Part shown: piece by piece, positions 4,584-62,703 of the stretch
How positions within the stretch are numbered: the stretch's first letter is position 1
Layout: each line of letters begins with the position of its first letter
Assembly (NCBI GenBank): GCA_963833095.1
Contig: CAWHWQ010000001.1
Span: forward strand, 704,001 to 768,000
Direction: 5' to 3'
Length of the DNA stretch: 64,000 bases
Source: Vulcanimicrobiota bacterium
GTDB taxonomy: Bacteria; Vulcanimicrobiota; Vulcanimicrobiia; Vulcanimicrobiales; Vulcanimicrobiaceae
The notes under the pieces: generated by a model
Database searches by the model: none
The model's input: only the letters and a program-made list of their open reading frames with translations
What the model was told of the DNA's origin: nothing
Translations under genes and position numbers: made by a program

Positions 4584-6827
4584 GTGCGTTCGCGCTTTCT
4601 TCTTGCCATCGGCGCGGGCTTTGCGCTCTGCGCATGCGCCGGCGTTCAGTCGTTTGCGCCTACGTCCGGTGCGCAGTCATCATTTCTACTAACGCCCGCA
4701 TCAGTGGACCTCACCCCTAGCGCGCCATCCGACACCTTCAACGGTCAAGGCGACGTTGCAGGAGTCACCTACACGCCGGTGGCCTCGTCCGAATGTGCGG
4801 CGGCCGGCGGCAGCCTCGTCGTGAGCGGCAATGGCGTTGCGCAGCTCGACGTTGCGGGCGCTCCCTTAATATTTACCGTCAACGCCGTGGGTGCGGCGCC
4901 ACCGCCGACCTGTACCGTCACGGTATCGGGCTCCGACGGGACCTCCGCCTCGGTCGCCGTGACCTACGACAACTCGCCGGTCACCGATCTTCCCGACGCA
5001 CGCAATCGGATTTACGCGGCGCCGTCTGTTACACCAAGCGCTTTGAGCTTTACCTCGGTGGCTTCGGTACAAGAGGTTGCGGTCTCCGGATTCTCCGGCG
5101 TGACAAAAACAAGCGTAACGTGCCATGTGAAATCGAGTGGCGTGCAGGTGTCGCCCACGCAGGTCACCGGCCCAGGCACATTCACGGTAATTCCCTTCGG
5201 TCAGGGAGGTGTCTCGAACAACTGCGGGATCGCCATCACCGACGCGCAGGGCGATCAGGGCACAATCGCCGTCGCGCTTTCGATTGGAGCTCTCGCAAAG
5301 CTCACGGCTGCCCCGCGTCAGTTGGAGTTTGCGTGCGCCGGTTCAGCCGCGCCGTACAACTGTCAAAGCATGCAGGCCGTCGCGATCGCGGAGAATGGAA
5401 CGCACACCTACAGCATTGTCACACGGCCAACCCTCAAGGGATCGTGCGCAAACGTCTTCTACGGCCCCCTTACGATGACGACCGACGGCACGACCTATGC
5501 GCAAAGCCTCACCGGATCGGCGCTATCACTCACCTTCGCGGGCTTGCTTAAGACGGCGCCTCCCCCGACTTGCTCCCAAATCGTCATCACCGATGGCGGT
5601 ACACCCGCGCAACGCGCGCAAATCGGCGTCGTTTCAGCCGCCGCGGCTCCGCCCTCCTCCTTGAGCGCAGCGACGCCGCCGCCGTGCACCGGAACCGATC
5701 ATCGGGTTGCCGACCCGACCGCCCCGCACGGTATGTACGTATGGAATCCGTACAAAGTCAACGGCGGCGCGTATGAGCCTTACCTGGAGCAGTACGTGAT
5801 CGGCAAAGATCCCAATCTCTGCGGCGTCAGCATTCTCGTGGGTTGGGCCGACGTTGAGAAAACCAAGGGCAACTTCGATTGGAGTCAGGTCCTTACGTGG
5901 GCGCAGCCCTACGTGAACGCGGGCCTCAGCGTTAACTTGCTCTTCGCGGACGCGTCGGAAGTCGGAACGTCAAACTCGGCAACACCGAAGTGGGTCACCG
6001 ATCCCAGTGGTGATGGCGTCGCCGTCATCACTTGCGACGCCAGCGCAAGTTCTAGCCAACAGGTTCCCTATCCCAACTACATCGATGCGACCTTCGAAAA
6101 AGACTACGAGGCGTTCATCGCCGCGGCGGTAGCCGAGTTCACGCAACCGGCTTCAGCGGGCGGCTCATCGATCACCTCATCCATCGGCTACATGCGATTC
6201 GGTATCGGGGCGGGCGTCGAGGCCTATCCCGGGCACTTCAGCAATTATCCGAATGACACGTGCAGTAAAGCGTTCATCGCGCAAGGCTACTCGTTCCCCG
6301 CGTGGGTTACGCACACGCGCCATATCGTTAACTACATGGGCTCGCTGAATGCAAACGGCAAGCAATTGATGATTGCGCTCAACGAGATCGCCGGATATCC
6401 CAACAGCTTCTACGACTATCCAAACGACGGCGCCGAGGTCGCGGCGAATAATTCCATTGGGTTTGGCACCGAGAACCTCGGTATCGGTCACGTTGCCGAT
6501 GCAGGAACGTCGCCTGCACCATGCAACCCGCAGGGCACCGACGGCAGTATCTATTGGTGCGAAGCCTTCGGCCGTCACGTGGGTACGGTCCCGTTTGAAT
6601 TCCAGCCGATCGAAGCGGTTGCCGTGCCGCTGCCGAGCTACAACATCAGCTTTCCCAACTTGCTCCAGTTCGCGCTTGACAACAACACGCAACTGTTCGA
6701 AATCTATCCGGAGGATTGGCTGGAAGCCGATTCGCCCACGCAGATGTTCCCAGGCGGCGGCGCCGACAGCGCCACGTGGAAATCTGCCTTCAATGCCACC
6801 GCGCTGATCGTAGGAGCGAAGCATTAA
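4584..6827 (+). CDS. Large secreted lipoprotein, Ig-like N-terminal domains plus putative clan-A-like glycoside hydrolase domain
   Basis: GTG 4584 after AGGAGG; signal peptide/lipobox (ALCAC); GVSILVGWADVEKTKGNFDWS and TPKWV resemble GH42/GH35-type TIM barrels. Confidence 0.6.
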   Translation: MRSRFLLAIGAGFALCACAGVQSFAPTSGAQSSFLLTPASVDLTPSAPSDTFNGQGDVAGVTYTPVASSECAAAGGSLVVSGNGVAQLDVAGAPLIFTVNAVGAAPPPTCTVTVSGSDGTSASVAVTYDNSPVTDLPDARNRIYAAPSVTPSALSFTSVASVQEVAVSGFSGVTKTSVTCHVKSSGVQVSPTQVTGPGTFTVIPFGQGGVSNNCGIAITDAQGDQGTIAVALSIGALAKLTAAPRQLEFACAGSAAPYNCQSMQAVAIAENGTHTYSIVTRPTLKGSCANVFYGPLTMTTDGTTYAQSLTGSALSLTFAGLLKTAPPPTCSQIVITDGGTPAQRAQIGVVSAAAAPPSSLSAATPPPCTGTDHRVADPTAPHGMYVWNPYKVNGGAYEPYLEQYVIGKDPNLCGVSILVGWADVEKTKGNFDWSQVLTWAQPYVNAGLSVNLLFADASEVGTSNSATPKWVTDPSGDGVAVITCDASASSSQQVPYPNYIDATFEKDYEAFIAAAVAEFTQPASAGGSSITSSIGYMRFGIGAGVEAYPGHFSNYPNDTCSKAFIAQGYSFPAWVTHTRHIVNYMGSLNANGKQLMIALNEIAGYPNSFYDYPNDGAEVAANNSIGFGTENLGIGHVADAGTSPAPCNPQGTDGSIYWCEAFGRHVGTVPFEFQPIEAVAVPLPSYNISFPNLLQFALDNNTQLFEIYPEDWLEADSPTQMFPGGGADSATWKSAFNATALIVGAKH

Positions 6828-8011
6828 TGCGCACGAAAATTCTCGGAGCACTCCTCGGCTGTATCGCGATTGCAGCGTGCGGCGGCGGAAGTCTGGCCCC
6901 TGCCAACCCGTCTCCCGGCGCGACCGCGCCCGGGACCGTCACGGTGTCGCCGCCGAAAATCCCACTGCGCGGGCTGCTCGACATGCAAGACATCTCGTGG
7001 CACGACACCGACAATGCGACACCGCCGCCGTTCGACATCTCCTACGTTCAGGGGTTTCCCGGATCGTTCGGCGGGGTCGTGATCAACGTTGCGTGGAGTC
7101 AGATGCAGTCGAGTGCGAATGCAACCATCAACACCTCGGTGATCGACACGGCGCTCGCGAGTATCACCTCCTACAATACTACGAATCAATCTTCGCCGTT
7201 GGGCGTCAAGCTGCGCATTTACGCCGGTAGCAACGCCCCACTCTGGGCCAAGGACATGCCCGGCGGCCCGATCACCATCTACCGCAATCCCGCCGGCTGC
7301 AATGGACAAACCGATACCTGCCCGCTCACCGTCGGACCGTATTGGACGACGCCCTACATCACGGCGTGGCGCGCGTTTCAAGCGCAAGTCGCTGCGAAGT
7401 ACGATACCAATCCGCTGATCATCGCCGTCGCGGTGACGTCGTGCGCCGAGCAGACCGACGAACCGTTCGTTTCGTCGACCGGACCGATCAGCAAAGCAAA
7501 CCTGAGAGCTGCCGGCCTCACCGACACCTTGCAGCAGTCGTGCCTCTCCGGCGCAATGACCGACTACGCGGCGTGGACGAACACCGATATCGACTACACG
7601 TTCAATTCGTACAACGAGCTTAGCGGGGGCCTCGACACGGCATTCAGCCAAAGTGTGATGACGATCTGCCGGCAAATGGCTCCAAACCGCTGCGTGCTCG
7701 ACAACCACGCCTTGCAGACGCCGATCACGAGCGACCCGGGAATCTACACTGACATCCAAAGCATGGGCGGCTTGATTAACTTCCAAACGCAGGCGCCTGA
7801 AGGGATGGGCTGCATCTGGCCAGAGACAATCACGCAAGGGCTGATCCTTGGGGCGCGCGCGATCGAACTATGGCCTGAAAAGAAGTATCAGGGATTCGTC
7901 ACGCTCACGGTGCCGGAAGTGCAGGCATTACAAGCTCTCTTCTTTGCGCCGGTTCCCACCTCGACGCCGGTGCCGAATCCGCTGCCCACGCCGTGCAGCG
8001 GTTACAACTAG
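6827..8011 (+). CDS. Secreted lipoprotein, putative glycoside hydrolase-like domain
   Basis: ATG overlaps upstream TAA; lipobox IAAC; GVVINVAWSQMQ, APLWAK, PYWTTPYITAW..AAKYD motifs; Pro/Thr tail. Confidence 0.6.
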   Translation: MRTKILGALLGCIAIAACGGGSLAPANPSPGATAPGTVTVSPPKIPLRGLLDMQDISWHDTDNATPPPFDISYVQGFPGSFGGVVINVAWSQMQSSANATINTSVIDTALASITSYNTTNQSSPLGVKLRIYAGSNAPLWAKDMPGGPITIYRNPAGCNGQTDTCPLTVGPYWTTPYITAWRAFQAQVAAKYDTNPLIIAVAVTSCAEQTDEPFVSSTGPISKANLRAAGLTDTLQQSCLSGAMTDYAAWTNTDIDYTFNSYNELSGGLDTAFSQSVMTICRQMAPNRCVLDNHALQTPITSDPGIYTDIQSMGGLINFQTQAPEGMGCIWPETITQGLILGARAIELWPEKKYQGFVTLTVPEVQALQALFFAPVPTSTPVPNPLPTPCSGYN

Positions 8012-55239: not shown

Positions 55240-55767
55240 CTATGAGGCTTTCTTTGCGGCCTTCTTTGCCGAGGAAGCCGCGCTGCCGTTGCCATTACGA
55301 ATCCCGTCGATCTTGTACTTGACCACGCCGCGCGGGGTGGAGACATCGACCGTCTCGCCCTTCTTGTGGCCGATCAAGGCACGACCCAGGGGCGACTCGT
55401 TGGAGATGCGCTTGGCCGACGGATCGGCTTCAGCCGAGCCCACGATATGAAATTCGTAGCTCTCGTTGTTCTTGAGGTCTTTGACGTTGACCGTCGCGCC
55501 GATGTGGACTTCATCGCTGGCATATTCCGATTCGTCGAGGATCTTCGCGTTGCGAATCATGCCTTCGAGCTTCAAAATACGACCCTCGATGAACGCCTGC
55601 TCTTGCTTAGCGTCCTCGTATTCGGCATTTTCACTCAGGTCGCCGTATTCTTTGGCCTGGCGAATCCGGTCGTTGACCTCTTTGCGATGGACGGTCTTTA
55701 GCTCGTCCAACTCTTCCTGGAGCTTCTGCAGCCCCTCGGCGGTCAGGATGATCTCTTTATCGTTCAA
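55240..55767 (-). CDS. greA: Transcription elongation factor GreA
   Basis: LTAEG..GDLSENAEY..ISNESPLGRAL; TTG 55767. Confidence 0.96.
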   Translation of the reverse strand: MNDKEIILTAEGLQKLQEELDELKTVHRKEVNDRIRQAKEYGDLSENAEYEDAKQEQAFIEGRILKLEGMIRNAKILDESEYASDEVHIGATVNVKDLKNNESYEFHIVGSAEADPSAKRISNESPLGRALIGHKKGETVDVSTPRGVVKYKIDGIRNGNGSAASSAKKAAKKAS

Positions 55768-55871
55768 GGATGGACCCAGCGACCTCGTAATAACATAATT
55801 TTGGCGCCCGGTGAGGACGCTGGCGCGGTTTGTTTGGGGCGCCCGAAGCGTTCCCCTTCCTGACGGTGGCT

Positions 55872-58106
55872 CTACCCGCGTCGTGCCCGCCCGCGCCAGA
55901 GCGCAAATGGTATACCCAACAGGACTCCCGCGCAAGCGTATCCCGAAAGTTTGTGATCCTCCACCGCCACGGTGGCAACCAGGACGCCCAGAAGCGCGAG
56001 CGCCCCGGCAAGCGGCACGAGCACGCCTCCCAACCGCGCAACCGGCTCACCCCAGAAACGCTTGGCTGCCGCAAGAGCCGTGAGCACGAACAGTAGGCCC
56101 AGAAAAATGGAGCTTGCGTTCAGGACGAGCGTCAATTGATCGGCGGCGCTCTTGGAAAAACCCGTGACGAGCTCGCAGAGCGTCGCCAGCACGGTTACCA
56201 CGCCCATCGACCAGAGCGGCTCGTCGCGCGCGTCCAAGGCCCCGAGAACTCGCGGCAAGACGCCGTCGCGCCCCATCGCGTACACCGAGCGCGTAAGATA
56301 TAAGATTGTCGTCCAAAGCGTCGAGAGCGTGGAAAGCAGCACGGTCACGACGATCGCGACGCGCCACCACGGTCCGCCGAGCAGTGAGCCCACGTAGGCC
56401 AACCCGTCGGCTTGATTATCGGCGAAGCCTTGCAGCGAGCCCAGATGCTCGAACGCGTACATGCACGCAAGCAACACGAGGGTCGAAAACACGAGACCAG
56501 TGATGCCGCCCCGGCCCGAAGCGCTCGAGGTGTCGTTAACCTCTTCGCTGGTCGAGGCGCTTACTTCCCAACCGTCGCTCATCCAAACCGCAAGTGTCAT
56601 CGCGGTCACAAATCCGACGACACCGAACGATGCGGGCAAAAGCGTACTATGCGGCGCTTCGTGCACCGGCGCCGGCGCGTGCAATGCGGCGGCAAGCGCC
56701 GCGACGAGCAGGACGCCGATTTCAAGTGCGAGCGCGAGCAGCGTCACGAGCGCGGTCGGACGTACGCCCGCGTAGAGTAAGGCCGAGCTTGCGAGAATCC
56801 AAACGGCGCCGACAACCGCCGCCCAAACGGGATCTTGTTCGTGAGCCGGCGCGACCAGCGCGAGCGTATAGATTCCGGCCGGCACCGCGATCGCCATCGT
56901 CGCGAAGAAGTTCGAGAGGAGGAGCAGCCACGCGCCATAGGCGCCGGTATGCGCACCGAAGGCCATGCGAATCCAGGAATACGATGAGCCGGCGTTCGGC
57001 GCGACGCGCGACAGATACGAAAACGACACGGCGATGCAGAGCATGATCGCTGAGAGCGCGAGTAACGCTAGCGGCGCGGCGAATCCGGCCGCAACGACCA
57101 TCGGCCCCATGGTGGAAGCAAGCGAATATGCCGGGCCCATCGATGCCGACGCCAGCACCGAGATATCGAAGAAACGCAAAACGCGCGGGAGGCGGCGCGT
57201 CAATGTCAGGACGATCACACGCGGATCGAGATGCAATTCGTGAAGCACGCGCTCGTAGTCAGAAGCACGGACGTCGTCCCATTTTTTACCAAGCAGCGCT
57301 AAAAGCGCGGCCTCGACCACGTTCGTTCCGAACGAGCGACCATCGAAGTCGGGCGTCGTGGTAATGAGCAGCGCCACCCCACGCACGCGCAGCTCCTCGA
57401 TGTTGGCTGCCGTCACCGTATTGGTCAACACGATCTTGCCGTCGAGCCGCTCCGGCATGAACTGTCGCATGAAGTGGAAGTCGCCCGCGATGATGTCGGC
57501 CTCGTCGTAATACTGTGGATATTTTGGCTCGGGCGGTTTTTCTTGTTTCTTGCCGGTCGGGTAGAAAAATTGAAACGGCAACTTGCAGGCGTCGGGCAGA
57601 TATTTCTCAGCCATCTCTTCGAAGGTGCGCAGATCGCGCACGGCGATATCTTTGTCGAGCGCAAAGATAAAATCACCGAAGAGGACGTCAGCGCCGGCGT
57701 CGACCAACGCCTGCGCCATGCCGAAGCGGTCGAGCGCGCTGACCATGAGCACGCGCTTGCCGCGCAGCTCGATGCCCAGGTCGTTCTGCATGTACTGCAC
57801 GGCGTTGCGCTCGAGCGTATTCTTCAGGCCGCTGCCGTCGACGACCGGTGTCACCTTCGCTGCCTGCAGCAGCCGCAAGCCGTCGCGCAGCGCATAGCGC
57901 TTTGACCCGGCGTAAAGGTACACGTCGATGCCGCCCAGCCCAATCGCGTCGACCGTGCCGTCGAGCTCGCGCACGCGAGCTATCGCTTTATCAAGCTTGC
58001 CGTCGACGCCCTCACGCGAGATATCAAAATCTTCGCCGAGAAGATTCACGACCGCACGATGGTCGCGCGTCGAGGAGCCAAGTGAAACCGAAACGATCTT
58101 CTTCAC
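55872..58106 (-). CDS. Fusion of a conserved ~300-aa soluble protein (family often labelled quinate 5-dehydrogenase) and an APC amino acid/amine permease
   Basis: N-part VSVSLGSS.RDH, AIGLGGID, VVDGSGLKNTLE, GRSFGTNV; C-part multi-TM with MGPAYS, PNAGSSY, DGWE..SEE, YAMGRDGVLP; junction about 57203. Confidence 0.8.
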   Translation of the reverse strand: MKKIVSVSLGSSTRDHRAVVNLLGEDFDISREGVDGKLDKAIARVRELDGTVDAIGLGGIDVYLYAGSKRYALRDGLRLLQAAKVTPVVDGSGLKNTLERNAVQYMQNDLGIELRGKRVLMVSALDRFGMAQALVDAGADVLFGDFIFALDKDIAVRDLRTFEEMAEKYLPDACKLPFQFFYPTGKKQEKPPEPKYPQYYDEADIIAGDFHFMRQFMPERLDGKIVLTNTVTAANIEELRVRGVALLITTTPDFDGRSFGTNVVEAALLALLGKKWDDVRASDYERVLHELHLDPRVIVLTLTRRLPRVLRFFDISVLASASMGPAYSLASTMGPMVVAAGFAAPLALLALSAIMLCIAVSFSYLSRVAPNAGSSYSWIRMAFGAHTGAYGAWLLLLSNFFATMAIAVPAGIYTLALVAPAHEQDPVWAAVVGAVWILASSALLYAGVRPTALVTLLALALEIGVLLVAALAAALHAPAPVHEAPHSTLLPASFGVVGFVTAMTLAVWMSDGWEVSASTSEEVNDTSSASGRGGITGLVFSTLVLLACMYAFEHLGSLQGFADNQADGLAYVGSLLGGPWWRVAIVVTVLLSTLSTLWTTILYLTRSVYAMGRDGVLPRVLGALDARDEPLWSMGVVTVLATLCELVTGFSKSAADQLTLVLNASSIFLGLLFVLTALAAAKRFWGEPVARLGGVLVPLAGALALLGVLVATVAVEDHKLSGYACAGVLLGIPFALWRGRARRG

Positions 58107-58196
58107 TTCAACGGCGCTCCGCCCTAGGCTCCGCGCCCCCCACTTCGTGGGGCCCCCACTGTAGGACGCGCCCGAACGACATTGCGTCGTAAGCCA

Positions 58197-59303
58197 TCAT
58201 ACTGCGAGACCTCGTCGAGCCTCTGCAGCCACTCTTGTGGCGGCGATTTTTTCGGGCGTGATGGCGGTGTCGAACGCGCGCATGTCGGCGAGCGAAAAGC
58301 CGCAGCGCGACGCCATCGTTTCGATCTCGATCACTTTGTTGACGTCGATGCCGCGGCCGAGCGTATAACATTCGGCCCGATTCTCGAGCGCGAGCACCAT
58401 CGTTTCGCTCATGCACGCAAGCGCCGTGCGGGGTGGCAAGTTGAGATCGAATTCCGTACCCGGCTCACGGACGCGTTCGAAAAACGGATCGCCCGGAACG
58501 AGCATGTTGCCGCCTTCGGTCACCAATACGTCGGGGCGCTCGAGCGCGACGCGGCGGCTCACGTCGTGCGGAAGCGAAAGCTCGCACACCACGGCGCCCG
58601 GCAGTAGGTCCTCGGGTTGGATGACGTCCTGCGTCGACGACGTCGCGGTGAGAATCAGCTGCGAGCGGCGCACGGCGTCGGAAATATCCGTGGTGTGCGA
58701 GACTGCGCAAGGTAGTTCGGTCTTCATCTGCTCGGCGAATTTTGCGAGACGCGTATAGTTGCGCGCGACGAGCACGATGTGCTTGACGTGCGGCGCGAGC
58801 AGTTTGACGCAGGCACCGCCGATCGAGCCGGTCGCGCCGACGACGGCGACCGTGGCCGTCGCTGGATCAACACCCATCTCGCGCGCGCCGCGGAAGAAGC
58901 TTTGAATGCCGGCCGCGATCGTGAGCGAATTGCCGGTGGTGACCGGGATTGGCGACCGTTCCGCCACCGTGATGCCGCCGTCGCCCACGACGCCGGTGAA
59001 CGCGCCTAAGCCCGCGACCTCAGCGCCGAGTTCGGCGCCAATCTCGATGGCGCGTACGATGCGTTTGTAGACCTCTTCGCGGGGAAACTCCATCATCTGC
59101 TCGGGGAACAACGGCGCCGTTACGAACCAGCCTTCGGTCTCGCGCCCGTCCGGCGCGCGCACGCCGGTGACGTGCACGGTCGCCCACGGCGGCATCCACT
59201 CCATGATCTTGCGAACGATCGGCGCGCCTTTGCCCGCCGCGCCCGGCTCGTAGCGCGCGACGTCTTCGAGCGAGAGCGGATGAATCACAAAGCAGAACTT
59301 CAT
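58197..59303 (-). CDS. Acyl-ACP-reductase-like / shikimate-DH-like NAD(P)-dependent oxidoreductase
   Basis: FCFVIHP, AGLGAFT, TTGNSLT, VVGATGSIG, PHDV, ACMSETMVLALE. Confidence 0.75.
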   Translation of the reverse strand: MKFCFVIHPLSLEDVARYEPGAAGKGAPIVRKIMEWMPPWATVHVTGVRAPDGRETEGWFVTAPLFPEQMMEFPREEVYKRIVRAIEIGAELGAEVAGLGAFTGVVGDGGITVAERSPIPVTTGNSLTIAAGIQSFFRGAREMGVDPATATVAVVGATGSIGGACVKLLAPHVKHIVLVARNYTRLAKFAEQMKTELPCAVSHTTDISDAVRRSQLILTATSSTQDVIQPEDLLPGAVVCELSLPHDVSRRVALERPDVLVTEGGNMLVPGDPFFERVREPGTEFDLNLPPRTALACMSETMVLALENRAECYTLGRGIDVNKVIEIETMASRCGFSLADMRAFDTAITPEKIAATRVAAEARRGLAV

Positions 59304-59734
59304 TGTTCGGCTTGGACTTTCAGTGCGCGTAGCATCATCTCGCTATTCTCGAGTACCTTCTTCTGCAATGTCGGACCGATCAATTCTGCCAGCGTCGGTA
59401 CCCCGAAATCATACTCTACGGTGAGCAGCACGTGCGTCAAGCCATCGCGCTCCTCGAAGGTCCAAGCCCCCTCGAACGTGTCGAGATCGCCCTCGAGCAG
59501 CGCGTAGTCGATGCGCAGCGCAGCGTCGTCGAAACGATCCTCCTCGGTCCATTCGATCGGCGCCTCCTCAACCAGCGTCTTCCAGCGCGAGATCACCCGG
59601 TCCGGATGGCGCTCGAGCACCCGGACGGTCTCGACGTCGGGCATGAACTCGGGAAAGCGCTCTTGGTCTTTGGCAAGCTCGTAGACGACGCGGGCTGGAG
59701 CGGCGACCGCGATGCGGGATTCGACGTAGGGCAT
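59300..59734 (-). CDS. SRPBCC/START (polyketide cyclase/Coq10-like) lipid-binding protein
   Basis: VYELAKDQERFPEFMPDV..LEGDLDTFEGAW..YDFG; ATG 59734. Confidence 0.88.
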   Translation of the reverse strand: MPYVESRIAVAAPARVVYELAKDQERFPEFMPDVETVRVLERHPDRVISRWKTLVEEAPIEWTEEDRFDDAALRIDYALLEGDLDTFEGAWTFEERDGLTHVLLTVEYDFGVPTLAELIGPTLQKKVLENSEMMLRALKVQAEQ

Positions 59735-59736
59735 TT

Positions 59737-60996
59737 TTACAAGCGCCCGAGCTTCTCGGCCGCCGCCGCCACCCCTGCGCTCAACGCTGATAGCGCGATA
59801 TCGACCTCGCCCTCGGTGACGATCAGCGGCGGCTCGAGGCGAATCACACGCTGCTGGTTGAGCGTCCAGGCCGCGGTGACCCCGGCTTTGAGCATCTCGG
59901 GGATGATCCAACCACCATAGCCTTCGTTCGTGAGTTCGACACCGGCGAGCAAACCGAGTCCGCGCGCTTCGCGGATCACCTGTGGGTACTCAAGGGCAAT
60001 TGCTTTGCAGCCGTCGAGCAGTTGTTCGCCGCGCGCCCGCGCCTTGCTCACCAGATCGTCGTCGATTAACACGTCCATAGCGGCGAGCGCAGCGGCGCAG
60101 GCGATCTCGCTTCCACCAAACGTGGAAGTGTGAATCAACGGCTGCTTTGCGTACGCTCGACTCCAGGCGTCGGGCCGAGCGATGAACGCGCCGACCGGAA
60201 TGATGCCGCCGGAGAGCCCCTTCGCGAGCGTCATCACGTCGGGCACGACGTTGTCACGTTCGCAGGCAAAGAGATAGCCGCAGCGCCCAAGCCCTGTCTG
60301 GACTTCGTCAGCGATGAAGAGCGCGCCCGAACGGTCGCACGCCTCGCGCACCGCGCGCAAGTATCCCGCGGGCGGAACGTTGACCCCGCCTTCACCTTGC
60401 ACCGGCTCGACCACAAACGCCGCCGCATCGCGCAGCGCTTCATCGAGTACACGTGCCTCGCCGAAAGGCACGTGGGCGACATCGGCGAGTAACGGACGAA
60501 ACGGCGTTTGAAAGGCCTCGCGGCCGCTGATCGAGAGCGCGCCGAGGGTCTTGCCGTGATAGGCGTCGTGCGTTGCGACAATTTTCGCGCGTCCGGTGGC
60601 GGCGCGCGCGAGTTTGATCGCCCCCTCGAGCGCCTCGGTCCCGCTGTTGCACCAAAATGAATACTGCAGGTCACCCGGCGCAAGTTCGGCCAAGCGCTTT
60701 GCCGCGCGTCCGAGCGCGACGTTGAACATCGTCTTGCCCGAAAGCGACATGCGCTCCATCTGCTCGCGCACCGCCGCGATCACGCGCGGGTGCGAGTGCC
60801 CGAGCGTGAAGACACCGTAGCCACCGGCGAAGTCGAGATACGCCTTGCCGTTCTGATCCCAGATCGTGGTGCCGCAAGCGCGCACTTCCAGCGGCGAACC
60901 GGAGAGCTTCATCACGCGCGCCAGCGGCGGATTGATGAAGTTCTTATAGTTCTCGAACGCCTCGGAGGCCAGATCGTTCTCGGTCTCCGCCTTCAT
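59737..60996 (-). CDS. Class III PLP aminotransferase (putrescine/acetylornithine type)
   Basis: YLDFAGGYG, NSGTEA, YHGKT, EPVQGEGG, ADEVQTG, LAKGLSGG, HTSTFGG. Confidence 0.93.
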   Translation of the reverse strand: MKAETENDLASEAFENYKNFINPPLARVMKLSGSPLEVRACGTTIWDQNGKAYLDFAGGYGVFTLGHSHPRVIAAVREQMERMSLSGKTMFNVALGRAAKRLAELAPGDLQYSFWCNSGTEALEGAIKLARAATGRAKIVATHDAYHGKTLGALSISGREAFQTPFRPLLADVAHVPFGEARVLDEALRDAAAFVVEPVQGEGGVNVPPAGYLRAVREACDRSGALFIADEVQTGLGRCGYLFACERDNVVPDVMTLAKGLSGGIIPVGAFIARPDAWSRAYAKQPLIHTSTFGGSEIACAAALAAMDVLIDDDLVSKARARGEQLLDGCKAIALEYPQVIREARGLGLLAGVELTNEGYGGWIIPEMLKAGVTAAWTLNQQRVIRLEPPLIVTEGEVDIALSALSAGVAAAAEKLGRL

Positions 60997-61694
60997 GCGA
61001 CCGGTGCCCCTACGGCAATGCCCAGGGGCGAATAGCCCAGCGACTCCGCGATCTCGTCGCCGTACAGCGACGCAAAAACGATCGGCGCGGCGCGCGAATC
61101 CAAATACGGTTCAACCTTCACGCGATAGGTTGCATCGGTATACGGACTCTCCACGCCGGCAAAAGCTTGCGCGCGAATCTCGCGATCGAGGATCTCGCGA
61201 AGCGTGCGCACTTTGCCATTGCGGCGCTCGTCAATCGTCCGATACAGCGATGCGAGGGTTTCCGCGCGGAGGAGTCCGACGGTCGGCTCTTCGCTGCTCC
61301 AGAGCATCACGACGACCCAGCCGCGCGCAACCTGATGCTTACTCTCGTAGCGATGCGAAAACTGCGTGAACGCGCGATTTGTCCAGCCGCCAAGCGCGTC
61401 GTCGGCAACGATAACGATCAGGCGCAACGCATCGTCAATGCCGTCCAAGCGCGACGCGCCCTCTCGCGCCGCTTCGAGCGCAACTGTTTCCGCGTCGAGC
61501 GCAAGCAGCTTCTCCACCTGTTCGAGTACATGCGGTTTGGCCATCGGGTTAACGTTCGAGATCGGCAATTCCATCTCGCCGGTCTGCGAGCGCAGAATAT
61601 CGAGGTACTCTTTGAAGCGCGCGAAGCCGCGCGGCTGTGTGTAGAGATCGCGCAGTTGCGCTAGAAACGGAACAGGCTCGACGGCGATCGCCAC
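60993..61694 (-). CDS. Hypothetical protein
   Basis: Protein-like ORF coupled to both neighbours (NPMAKPH, GGWTNR, LYGD..SLGY); GTG 61694. Confidence 0.7.
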   Translation of the reverse strand: MAIAVEPVPFLAQLRDLYTQPRGFARFKEYLDILRSQTGEMELPISNVNPMAKPHVLEQVEKLLALDAETVALEAAREGASRLDGIDDALRLIVIVADDALGGWTNRAFTQFSHRYESKHQVARGWVVVMLWSSEEPTVGLLRAETLASLYRTIDERRNGKVRTLREILDREIRAQAFAGVESPYTDATYRVKVEPYLDSRAAPIVFASLYGDEIAESLGYSPLGIAVGAPVA

Positions 61695-61695
61695 G

Positions 61696-62703
61696 TCACG
61701 CCGCGACCATTGGCGAGGACTGCACGCGCGCGATCGTCTCTTCAATCGTAGCTATCGCTTCCTCAGCAAAATCGATGCGCATGATCCGCTCGCGAAGGAT
61801 TGCTGCACCCGGAATCCCTTTGAGATAGAGAGCCACGTGCTTACGCATCTGCGGGACCGCGCGCGACTCTCCCAATTCGTCGACCATCGCGCGGTAGTGC
61901 GTAATGCAATAACGCAACCTATCGGCGGCCGACGGTACGGAGCGCATCTCGCGTCCTTCCATCAGATCGGCGATCTGCGCGATCAACCACGGATTTCCGA
62001 GCGTACCACGACCCAGCATGATCGCATCGACGCCGCTGTCGCGCATGCGCTCCATCGCCGCGCGTGGATCGTCCAGATCGCCGTTGCCGATGACCGGAAT
62101 GTCGATCGCTTCTTTCAAGCGCGCGATGTGCTCCCAATCCGCGCTGCCTTTATAAAACTGGCGCGCGGTGCGCGCATGCAGGGTGACGGCTTGCACGCCG
62201 ACCGCCTGCGCCCGCTTGGCGACGTCAATGTACACGAGGTCGGTCTCGCTCCACCCCAGACGCATCTTCATGGTCACCGGACAATCGACCGCATCGACGA
62301 CCGCCTTCATGATCGCCTCGCAACGATCGAGGTCGCGCAAGCATGCCGAACCGCCGTTGGTCTTGGTGACTTTGGGCGCCGGACAGCCGAAGTTGATGTC
62401 GACGATGTCGGCGCCGCACTCACGCACGACTTTAGCCGCTGCGGCCATCGTCGCCGGATCGTCACCCCAGAGCTGCGTTGAAACGGGCTTCTCGAGGCCG
62501 TGCTGATCGATCATCTCCATCGTGCGCTTGTTTGTGTATTTCAGCGCGTTCGACGAGACGAACTCGGTAACGGTCAGGCCAAGGCCAAAGGGTTTATAGA
62601 GCGCTCGCATCGTCCGGTTGGTAACGCCGGACATGGGTGCGAGCACGAGCGGAGGCCAGATCTGGAGGCTGCCGATTTGCAGCGGAGGCACGGTCGGGGG
62701 CAT
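61696..62703 (-). CDS. dusB: tRNA dihydrouridine synthase DusB
   Basis: LAPMSGVT, DINFGCP, TLHART, IGNGD, LGNPW, MRKH. Confidence 0.93.
   Translation of the reverse strand: MPPTVPPLQIGSLQIWPPLVLAPMSGVTNRTMRALYKPFGLGLTVTEFVSSNALKYTNKRTMEMIDQHGLEKPVSTQLWGDDPATMAAAAKVVRECGADIVDINFGCPAPKVTKTNGGSACLRDLDRCEAIMKAVVDAVDCPVTMKMRLGWSETDLVYIDVAKRAQAVGVQAVTLHARTARQFYKGSADWEHIARLKEAIDIPVIGNGDLDDPRAAMERMRDSGVDAIMLGRGTLGNPWLIAQIADLMEGREMRSVPSAADRLRYCITHYRAMVDELGESRAVPQMRKHVALYLKGIPGAAILRERIMRIDFAEEAIATIEETIARVQSSPMVAA

Follow-up and report, generated by a model that had tools for sequence, protein, structure and literature searches.

A conserved reductase–aminotransferase gene module of Eremiobacterota and its possible part in amine synthesis from acyl thioesters

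Introduction

What is the product of a compact run of genes that sits between dusB and greA in an almost uncultured bacterial phylum, and two of whose proteins go by the names of shikimate or quinate dehydrogenase? The run lies on the minus strand of the window, by which is meant the whole 64,000-nucleotide stretch analysed (positions 704,001 to 768,000 of contig CAWHWQ010000001.1, from a Vulcanimicrobiota bacterium). In order of reading it specifies a class III aminotransferase (here AT3), a small SRPBCC protein, a reductase (RED), a protein whose relatives are often labelled ‘quinate 5-dehydrogenase’ (Q5DH) and a permease (Table 1). An earlier sequence-only reading had proposed that they turn acyl-acyl carrier protein (acyl-ACP) into fatty aldehyde and then into fatty amine for membrane lipids. 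Its five reading frames and their dusB–greA setting are all present, and the thioester-to-amine chemical logic stands by homology to the enzymes PigE and TamH, so that as a whole the proposal is partly supported. Its taxon was over-read, as the host is Candidatus Eremiobacterota and not Deinococcus-Thermus, and no alkylamine lipid is on record there. The passage from a thioester through an aldehyde to an amine is, in our judgement, probable; that AT3, the SRPBCC protein, RED and Q5DH make up one module which takes an acyl thioester to a primary amine has about an even chance.

A reductase of the AAR/PigE-N type and its aminotransferase

Do the dehydrogenase names fit RED? The match to PF01488, at 39.3 bits, is limited to residues 147–253, the NAD-binding part, and the shikimate dehydrogenase model NF001310, whose cut-off is 221 bits, gives 22. 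Full-length homology is instead to the reductase half of PigE (PDB 4ppm, E 8.1e-41, query residues 21–348) and to the cyanobacterial acyl-ACP reductase, AAR (6jzq, E 1.3e-13, residues 37–337). The PigE model NF053554 is matched at 211 bits over profile positions 47–354 (cut-off 850); with the AAR equivalog model TIGR04058 the score of 81.4 bits is under the cut-off of 449.7, and RED is therefore not an AAR equivalog. Cys297 aligns with the catalytic Cys of both enzymes (C294 in AAR, C296 in PigE) and is invariant in 32 of 32 aligned sequences, as also in all 10 of a second alignment. G156ATGSIG162 is the GxxGxxG dinucleotide motif, and across the 32 sequences G156 is invariant and A157, G159, I161 and G162 are nearly so. 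The motifs that the sequence-only reading had quoted, LGAFT, TTGN, GATGSIG and AC.xE (as ACMSE), were all found in RED, and it was right both in calling the reductase AAR-like with a catalytic Cys and in distrusting the shikimate and quinate dehydrogenase labels. On this homology RED is best classed as a thioester reductase of the AAR/PigE-N type and not as a shikimate/quinate dehydrogenase, and NADPH-dependent reduction of a thioester to an aldehyde is predicted for it. Chain length is not readable from the sequence because the AAR tunnel residues M21, Y23 and Y26 fall outside the RED alignment.

AT3 is a class III aminotransferase, as had been claimed (PF00202, 326.6 bits, cut-off 30.5), of the YgjG/PigE-C type. 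Its closest solved relative is YgjG of Escherichia coli (4uox, 1.5e-107), with PigE at 5.5e-91 (4ppm). The putrescine aminotransferase models give 424.8 bits (NF008570, cut-off 612) and 376.5 bits (TIGR03372, cut-off 658.65), and the PigE model 415.4 bits over profile positions 370–730 (cut-off 850); the 237 bits for GABA aminotransferase are far below the 425 and 415 of putrescine and PigE, and AT3 stays under the NCBIfam equivalog cut-offs of every named family. The predicted pyridoxal phosphate lysine, K259, aligns with YgjG K300, and residue mapping finds that YgjG E243, Q274, R426, L419 and the family-specific K183 (as K149) are retained along with it, as is the Glu–Arg pair E202/R386 of AT3. 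According to the active-site passages of PMC4244111, the position of YgjG Lys183 is held by a carboxylate-binding Arg in OAT, AcOAT and GABA-AT, and Gln119 of YgjG binds the far amine of putrescine. Four substrate-site residues are changed from YgjG, namely F91 to Y60, Q119 to K88, F327 to L287 and Y402 to G362.

Two partner proteins

The SRPBCC protein (PF03364, 73.5 bits, cut-off 23.4) has as its best solved relative TTHA0849 of Thermus thermophilus (2d4r, E 1.7e-22, residues 2–140), which is of the same length and which a review of 2026 (PMC13525633) continued to call hypothetical. A literature search for gene names adjoining TTHA0849 found no paper.

What of Q5DH, which had been taken for a protein of unknown family? 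It does indeed have no match in Pfam or NCBIfam, PF01488 included; however, its fold can be placed. Its relatives stand alone and are about 301 amino acids (aa) long, and a model predicted from 22 sequences (pLDDT, the predicted local distance difference test score, 89.7) has as its best structural matches AAR (6jzq, Z 14.5, with 245 of 301 residues aligned) and the carmabin TAD domain (9e4s, Z 12.9), the next fold being at Z 9.9. The Z of 9.5 with AroE is well under that with AAR. In the 22-sequence alignment just G91 and D145 are invariant, and it contains no conserved Cys column and no GxxGxxG motif. In the model D145 is at the end of the second strand of a beta-alpha-beta unit, which would be the spot where Rossmann folds bind the adenosine ribose. 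Complex prediction for RED with Q5DH gave a score of 0.00 in two runs, which speaks neither for nor against a contact. From its modelled fold Q5DH appears to be a previously undescribed, Cys-less AAR-fold paralogue; in its occurrence it is the most constant partner of RED. That RED and Q5DH are after all the dehydrogenases of their database names has in its favour the PF01488 match on RED and the use of such names by several sources; given the restricted extent of that match, the homology of RED to PigE-N and AAR through to the catalytic Cys, and the fold comparison for Q5DH, it can be credited with practically no likelihood.

Retention throughout the phylum

Gene order was counted in the 80 closest RED loci, with titles such as Eremiobacteraeota, Vulcanimicrobiota and Baltobacteraceae and an identity of 74–95%, with flank minima of 1900 nt upstream and of 1900 nt or 4500 nt downstream. 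AT3 and the SRPBCC gene lie upstream of RED in all 64 loci with at least 1900 nt on that side, and Q5DH lies downstream in all 69 with at least 1900 nt on the other. In deeper families and classes the four genes occur in the same order in 14 of 15 loci, the exception (L094) being without the SRPBCC gene. RED itself was found in 197 of 201 Eremiobacterota genomes (195 of 199 if the unpublished G128 and G178 are set aside), in 168 of the 170 of good quality and in 80 of 80 genera. In the window the AT3 stop is followed after a 2-nt gap by the ATG of the SRPBCC gene, which overlaps RED by 4 nt, and the gap from RED to Q5DH is 90 nt. The arrangement is far beyond chance and, like the family memberships, the catalytic residues, the fusions described below and the phylum-wide presence, is a direct observation. 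Because the module belongs to the core genome of a whole phylum, a product of primary metabolism is indicated.

The permease is another matter. It is of the APC superfamily (PF13520, 88.6 bits, cut-off 27, with no NCBIfam equivalog reached) and had been counted into the pathway operon, a place it does not keep: it is present in 36 of the 60 related loci with at least 4500 nt downstream of RED, lacking in the other 24, and lacking in 15 of 15 deeper-lineage loci of the phylum. It is an optional accessory gene.

A side observation on the same genomes is that in five families (f6, f10, f13, f15 and f16) hemA and panC are both lacking in most or all of the genomes searched, and the module is retained. 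They look like lineages of reduced biosynthetic capacity.

Fusions and relatives outside the phylum

Which parts travel together elsewhere? A search of a 1.84-billion-protein library gave 2102 representatives of RED relatives at E<=1e-10, of which the best 150 were inspected. Among these are 22 fusions of Q5DH to RED, 12 of SRPBCC to RED, with the SRPBCC part N-terminal, and 2 of an aminotransferase to RED, together with 10 further proteins of 660–714 aa whose N-terminal part of about 300 aa was not recognised. Three of the SRPBCC–RED fusions also have PilZ, and one of the three has a helix-turn-helix (HTH) as well; one RED is joined to GAF, and one representative, found on two contigs, is joined to PlsY (P0136, P0146, P0186, P0196 and P0230, the PlsY case included). 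PlsY is the acyl-phosphate:glycerol-3-phosphate acyltransferase of lipid synthesis. In the stored loci no PlsY gene adjoins RED.

The RED relatives named by cluster look-ups for 30 representatives are from Clostridia-type Bacillota, Armatimonadota and Coprothermobacter, and a profile search named Clostridia-type organisms alone among its best 120. The 143 records from a plasmid collection were PigE-like fusions without exception, from Ralstonia among other hosts. For Q5DH, Deinococcota make up most of the nearest Atlas cluster. Among 14 control genomes TIGR04058 was matched at E<=1e-11 only in Synechococcus, where it is the true AAR, in T. thermophilus and in Deinococcus radiodurans, and the latter two did not match at 1e-18.

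Metagenomes were scanned with a 10-sequence alignment, a 40-sequence alignment being without a stretch conserved enough, and 80 loci were gathered. Five of them are Eremiobacterota-like and have the full module. None of the other 75 has a class III aminotransferase within its flanks, and the SRPBCC relative is also absent there. As for Q5DH, of the 66 loci that reach 1000 nt or more upstream of RED, 43 have it directly before RED or fused to RED, 8 have it elsewhere in the locus and 15 are without it. The constant unit is the Q5DH–RED pair, to which AT3 and the SRPBCC protein are additions seen here solely in Eremiobacterota and in fusion proteins. Several Firmicutes-like loci read coaX, dusB, (HTH), Q5DH, RED, greA, lysS, and because they share the dusB–greA setting without having AT3 that setting must be old. 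The RpoB of one metagenome locus, L127, is closer to Firmicutes polymerases than to that of Thermus.

What precedes the pair in the metagenome loci is in part recurrent. A RidA gene (PF01042) is directly upstream of Q5DH–RED in 9 of the 80 (L101, L102, L106, L120, L126, L147, L151, L168 and L174), a possible sign that the pair works amid imine or enamine chemistry. In another 7 of the 80, Firmicutes-like loci that run from coaX and dusB to greA and lysS, the pair is preceded by a 172-aa protein with an N-terminal HTH (L143:6531-7049, L158:6542-7060, L124, L146, L149, L164 and L177), which in three of the seven itself follows a conserved 320-aa open reading frame (ORF) belonging to no family. 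Apart from these, in one locus a fused Q5DH–RED of 747 aa (L137:3995-5869) adjoins a 624-aa ‘male sterility’ NAD_binding_4 reductase (L137:2302-3858), a short-chain dehydrogenase/reductase and a radical SAM protein; that neighbourhood is possibly a lipid-modifying cluster.

Comparison with known systems

Reduction of a thioester followed by transamination is known from pigment clusters, and from these alone (PigE, TamH and TabE/TabA). PigE, of the MAP branch of Serratia prodigiosin synthesis (4ppm), is described in the passages on it in PMC8341465 as a fused enzyme that reduces the thioester and then transaminates the aldehyde. Like the module it combines an AAR-like reductase that has the conserved Cys with a class III transaminase, and for RED and AT3 its two halves rank first or nearly first among the matches. 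However, it is one polypeptide with the reductase first, whereas here there are two genes with the transaminase first and the SRPBCC gene between them; it serves a pigment cluster and has neither a Q5DH nor an SRPBCC partner, whereas the present genes belong to the core genome; and the 211 bits of RED and 415 of AT3 are to be set against its equivalog cut-off of 850. TamH, which acts with TamA in the synthesis of tambjamine YP1 by Pseudoalteromonas tunicata, likewise joins a class III transaminase to an AAR-family reductase, and the part of PMC9594044 on its coupled assay reports conversion of C12 acyl-ACP to the C12 amine. Its order, transaminase then reductase, is shared with 2 of the 150 RED representatives. 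It differs in being fused, in having a dedicated adenylation-ACP protein and in belonging to a natural-product cluster; no such loader is beside the module here. In Streptomyces albus (tambjamine BE-18591) a separate acyl-ACP reductase, TabE, and omega-transaminase, TabA, make a C12 amine, as reported in 10.1101/2025.08.11.669332. TabE is said there to lack the usual AAR signatures, which RED has, and TabE/TabA are of secondary metabolism.

In cyanobacterial AAR (6jzq and, with ADO, 6jzy), by the mechanistic passages of PMC7089970, the acyl group is transferred to Cys294 and reduced with NADPH, and the aldehyde is passed to the partner through a hydrophobic tunnel. AAR has the same fold as RED and is the best structural match of the Q5DH model, but what acts downstream of it is ADO, in contrast to a transaminase here, and RED is accompanied by a Cys-less paralogue. 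The carmabin TAD, a terminal amidation domain, is of the AAR fold too and binds NAD via an Asp at the adenosine ribose (10.1101/2024.10.28.620694); unlike Q5DH, which is free-standing or fused to RED, it has an invariant Cys and ends modules of a nonribosomal peptide synthetase. YgjG, for all the key residues shared with AT3, K183 among them, is set apart by the four substrate-site changes and by the score of AT3, which is under the equivalog cut-off.

The proposed route and its product

How might the four proteins act together? As to the direction of the reaction, its substrate and the roles of the SRPBCC protein and Q5DH, we infer the following. The acyl group, borne on a phosphopantetheine carrier (ACP or CoA), would pass to Cys297 of RED, and RED would reduce the acyl-Cys with NADPH to the aldehyde in the manner of AAR, PigE-N and TamH-TR. 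AT3 would then transaminate the aldehyde to the amine, with glutamate the likely amino donor because the Glu–Arg pair E202/R386 is retained. Between the two the SRPBCC protein would shield the acyl chain or the aldehyde, and Q5DH would be a partner subunit of RED, which perhaps binds either a cofactor or the carrier's adenine-nucleotide portion.

Is the amine a fatty one? Four points favour a hydrophobic acyl chain: the presence of an SRPBCC protein as partner, what PigE and TamH use as substrates, the one fusion to PlsY, and a YgjG-type site that is without the carboxylate-binding Arg; our confidence that the acyl group is a hydrophobic chain of fatty type, which would give an alkylamine, falls somewhat short of even. 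More doubtful is the use of such an amine in building the membrane lipids of the phylum. In its favour are the near-universality of RED and the steady four-gene order, the TIGR04058 matches in T. thermophilus and D. radiodurans, the Thermus origin of the closest solved SRPBCC relative and the Deinococcota content of the Q5DH cluster, the link to these two organisms being a lead. The sole cultured Eremiobacterota strain has, in the chemotaxonomic part of PMC9758169, polar lipids and glycolipids that are all listed as unidentified. For Thermus and Deinococcus, the lipid passages of PMC3398001 give alkylamines whose chains resemble the fatty acids of the organism, and describe the pathway as still under study in 2012; a literature search found no paper naming its genes. 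The most far-reaching version, to which we give an equally low likelihood, would have long-chain alkylamines made by the module universal in Eremiobacterota membrane lipids, the relatives in Thermus and Deinococcus (the AAR-family reductase, TTHA0849 and the ‘quinate 5-dehydrogenase’) as the missing genes for the alkylamine of N-glyceroyl-alkylamine phosphoglycolipids, and Q5DH–RED as a general two-subunit generator of fatty aldehyde in the primary metabolism of Terrabacteria.

Several points weigh against synthesis of a fatty amine by the four proteins. The lack of a class III aminotransferase beside Q5DH–RED in the 75 loci outside the phylum, where the pair often comes after RidA or an HTH gene, means that the ancestral role of RED was not amine synthesis. 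In the window's family translation of Q5DH is coupled to that of a permease of amino acid/polyamine type, which accords more readily with an amine that is small and polar than with a fatty one. The module has no gene for an ACP, an acyl-activating enzyme, a glycosyltransferase or a phosphatidyltransferase. For TTHA0849 in the apo state a very small cavity is reported (PMC13525633), and the PlsY–RED fusion is one representative. Finally, as Thermus and Deinococcus are of one phylum, their shared profile is in effect a single observation.

What would follow? Here the logic of PigE and TamH is met unfused, in four components, with two extra partner proteins and in the core genome of an almost uncultured phylum. 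Should the product be a fatty amine, the unidentified Eremiobacterota lipids would become approachable for the first time, the alkylamine of the phosphoglycolipids of Thermus and Deinococcus would gain candidate genes open to testing, and enzymes split by nature would be on offer for fatty amine production. Regardless of the product, widespread ‘shikimate/quinate dehydrogenase’ labels are corrected and an unstudied, widely distributed Q5DH–RED pair is defined.

Alternative explanations

Might the amine be a small one? RED could generate malonate semialdehyde by reduction of malonyl-CoA or malonyl-ACP, and AT3 could aminate this to beta-alanine for pantothenate and CoA, in replacement of the aspartate decarboxylase PanD. 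PanD (PF02261) was indeed found in just 1 of 81 Eremiobacterota genomes, compared with 8 of 14 controls, panC in 53 of 81, including 26 of 26 in the window's family, and in the source genome (G000) the order is panC, coaBC, coaX, dusB, module; AT3 Lys88, at the position of YgjG Gln119, could hold a carboxylate, and the coupled permease is of amino acid type. However, the full module is present in all four examined genomes without panC and also in the sole PanD genome (G006), RED with its 197 of 201 genomes is far more constant than panC, and Thermus and Deinococcus have PanD plus a RED-family gene. The occurrence of coaX, dusB and greA around Q5DH–RED also where AT3 is absent, in the Firmicutes-like loci, makes that neighbourhood an ancestral one and not a functional one, AT3 is much nearer to diamine and PigE transaminases than to those of GABA type, and the SRPBCC partner would be left without explanation. 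A beta-alanine role is weakened by these and is, we judge, unlikely. A different small product, 5-aminolevulinate, would be expected if RED and AT3 were a non-canonical pairing of glutamyl-tRNA reductase (GluTR) with glutamate-1-semialdehyde aminomutase. RED is the sole match to the hemA model in the source genome, and GluTR figures as a distant structural relative of the AAR family in the passages concerned of PMC8341465; the missing hemA there carries little weight because that genome is 80.7% complete. RED is present also in families without hemA. This HemA/HemL-like role was rejected, with a likelihood close to nil, since a canonical hemA is above cut-off in 60 of 81 genomes and in 26 of 26 of the window's family.

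The reaction might also run the other way, with the permease importing an amine, AT3 deaminating it to the aldehyde and RED, as an acylating aldehyde dehydrogenase, oxidising that to the acyl thioester. The closest characterised relative of AT3, YgjG, is a catabolic putrescine aminotransferase, the permease gene shows translational coupling in the window's family, and thiohemiacetal–thioester chemistry should be reversible in principle. Yet the AAR-superfamily members characterised in the pertinent parts of PMC7089970, PMC8341465, PMC9594044 and 10.1101/2024.10.28.620694 are all reductive or offloading, the permease is dispensed with in all the deep-lineage loci and in 24 of the 60 close ones, and near-universality in a phylum is unusual for a catabolic option; catabolism is very improbable. 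Could there be no joint pathway at all? The aldehyde from Q5DH–RED would then serve another end and AT3 and the SRPBCC protein something separate, such as diamine or ornithine metabolism. With this accord the 75 of 75 loci outside the phylum in which the pair is without an aminotransferase, and the position of AT3 under every named family's equivalog cut-off. Set against it are the 2-nt gap from AT3 to the SRPBCC gene and the 4-nt overlap of the latter with RED, the order retained in all 64 of the close loci and in 14 of the 15 deep ones, and the existence of aminotransferase–RED and SRPBCC–RED fusions, and of PigE and TamH, so that we consider it decidedly unlikely. Both catabolism and the lack of a joint pathway are harder to square with the fusions and with the conservation than is synthesis of an amine from an acyl thioester by the four proteins together.

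Layout of the locus and neighbouring features

On the minus strand the order is coaBC, coaX, dusB, a 250-aa ORF, AT3, the SRPBCC gene, RED, Q5DH, the permease gene and greA, and in the source genome panC is just upstream of coaBC. Promoter and terminator scans gave results at chance level.

Table 1. Positions of the module and of associated features (numbering is that of the window except where another sequence is named)
Feature	Position	Strand	Basis or remark
AT3, class III (omega) aminotransferase, YgjG/PigE-C type, 419 aa	59737-60996	-	PF00202
SRPBCC/START-fold protein, 144 aa	59300-59734	-	PF03364
RED, predicted NADPH thioester reductase of AAR/PigE-N type, 368 aa	58197-59303	-	PDB 4ppm, 6jzq
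Q5DH, labelled ‘quinate 5-dehydrogenase’, putative Cys-less AAR-fold paralogue, 301 aa	57200-58106	-	predicted fold
APC-superfamily permease	55872-57203	-	PF13520
One extra base joining Q5DH and permease into a 744-aa ORF	57204-57205		comparison with relatives
Variable 250-aa ORF	60993-61745	-	
dusB	61696-62703	-	upstream of module
greA	55240-55770	-	downstream of module
panC	contig position 768660-769418 of source genome (G000)		660 bp past window end
RidA genes	about 6100-7100 of 17-kb metagenome loci		several after flagellar hook genes

In the window sequence Q5DH and the permease are one continuous ORF. The base responsible is missing in five of five close relatives, and missing too in all four contigs covering the site, which come from three public runs of one study, possibly including the source sample, and which otherwise differ from the window at 0 to 4 positions. 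Once it is taken out, the TGA that ends Q5DH overlaps the TTG start of the permease. Because the relatives and the public-run contigs are without the base, Q5DH and the permease are two genes, as the sequence-only reading had assumed, and the extra base probably reflects either a mistake of assembly or a variant of the strain.

The 250-aa ORF overlaps the start of AT3 by 4 nt and occurs in just 11 of the 58 related loci whose flanks are long enough. It has no match in Pfam or NCBIfam; in the Atlas its relatives are hypothetical proteins, with clusters of DUF2268 (putative Zn-protease-like) as a lead only.

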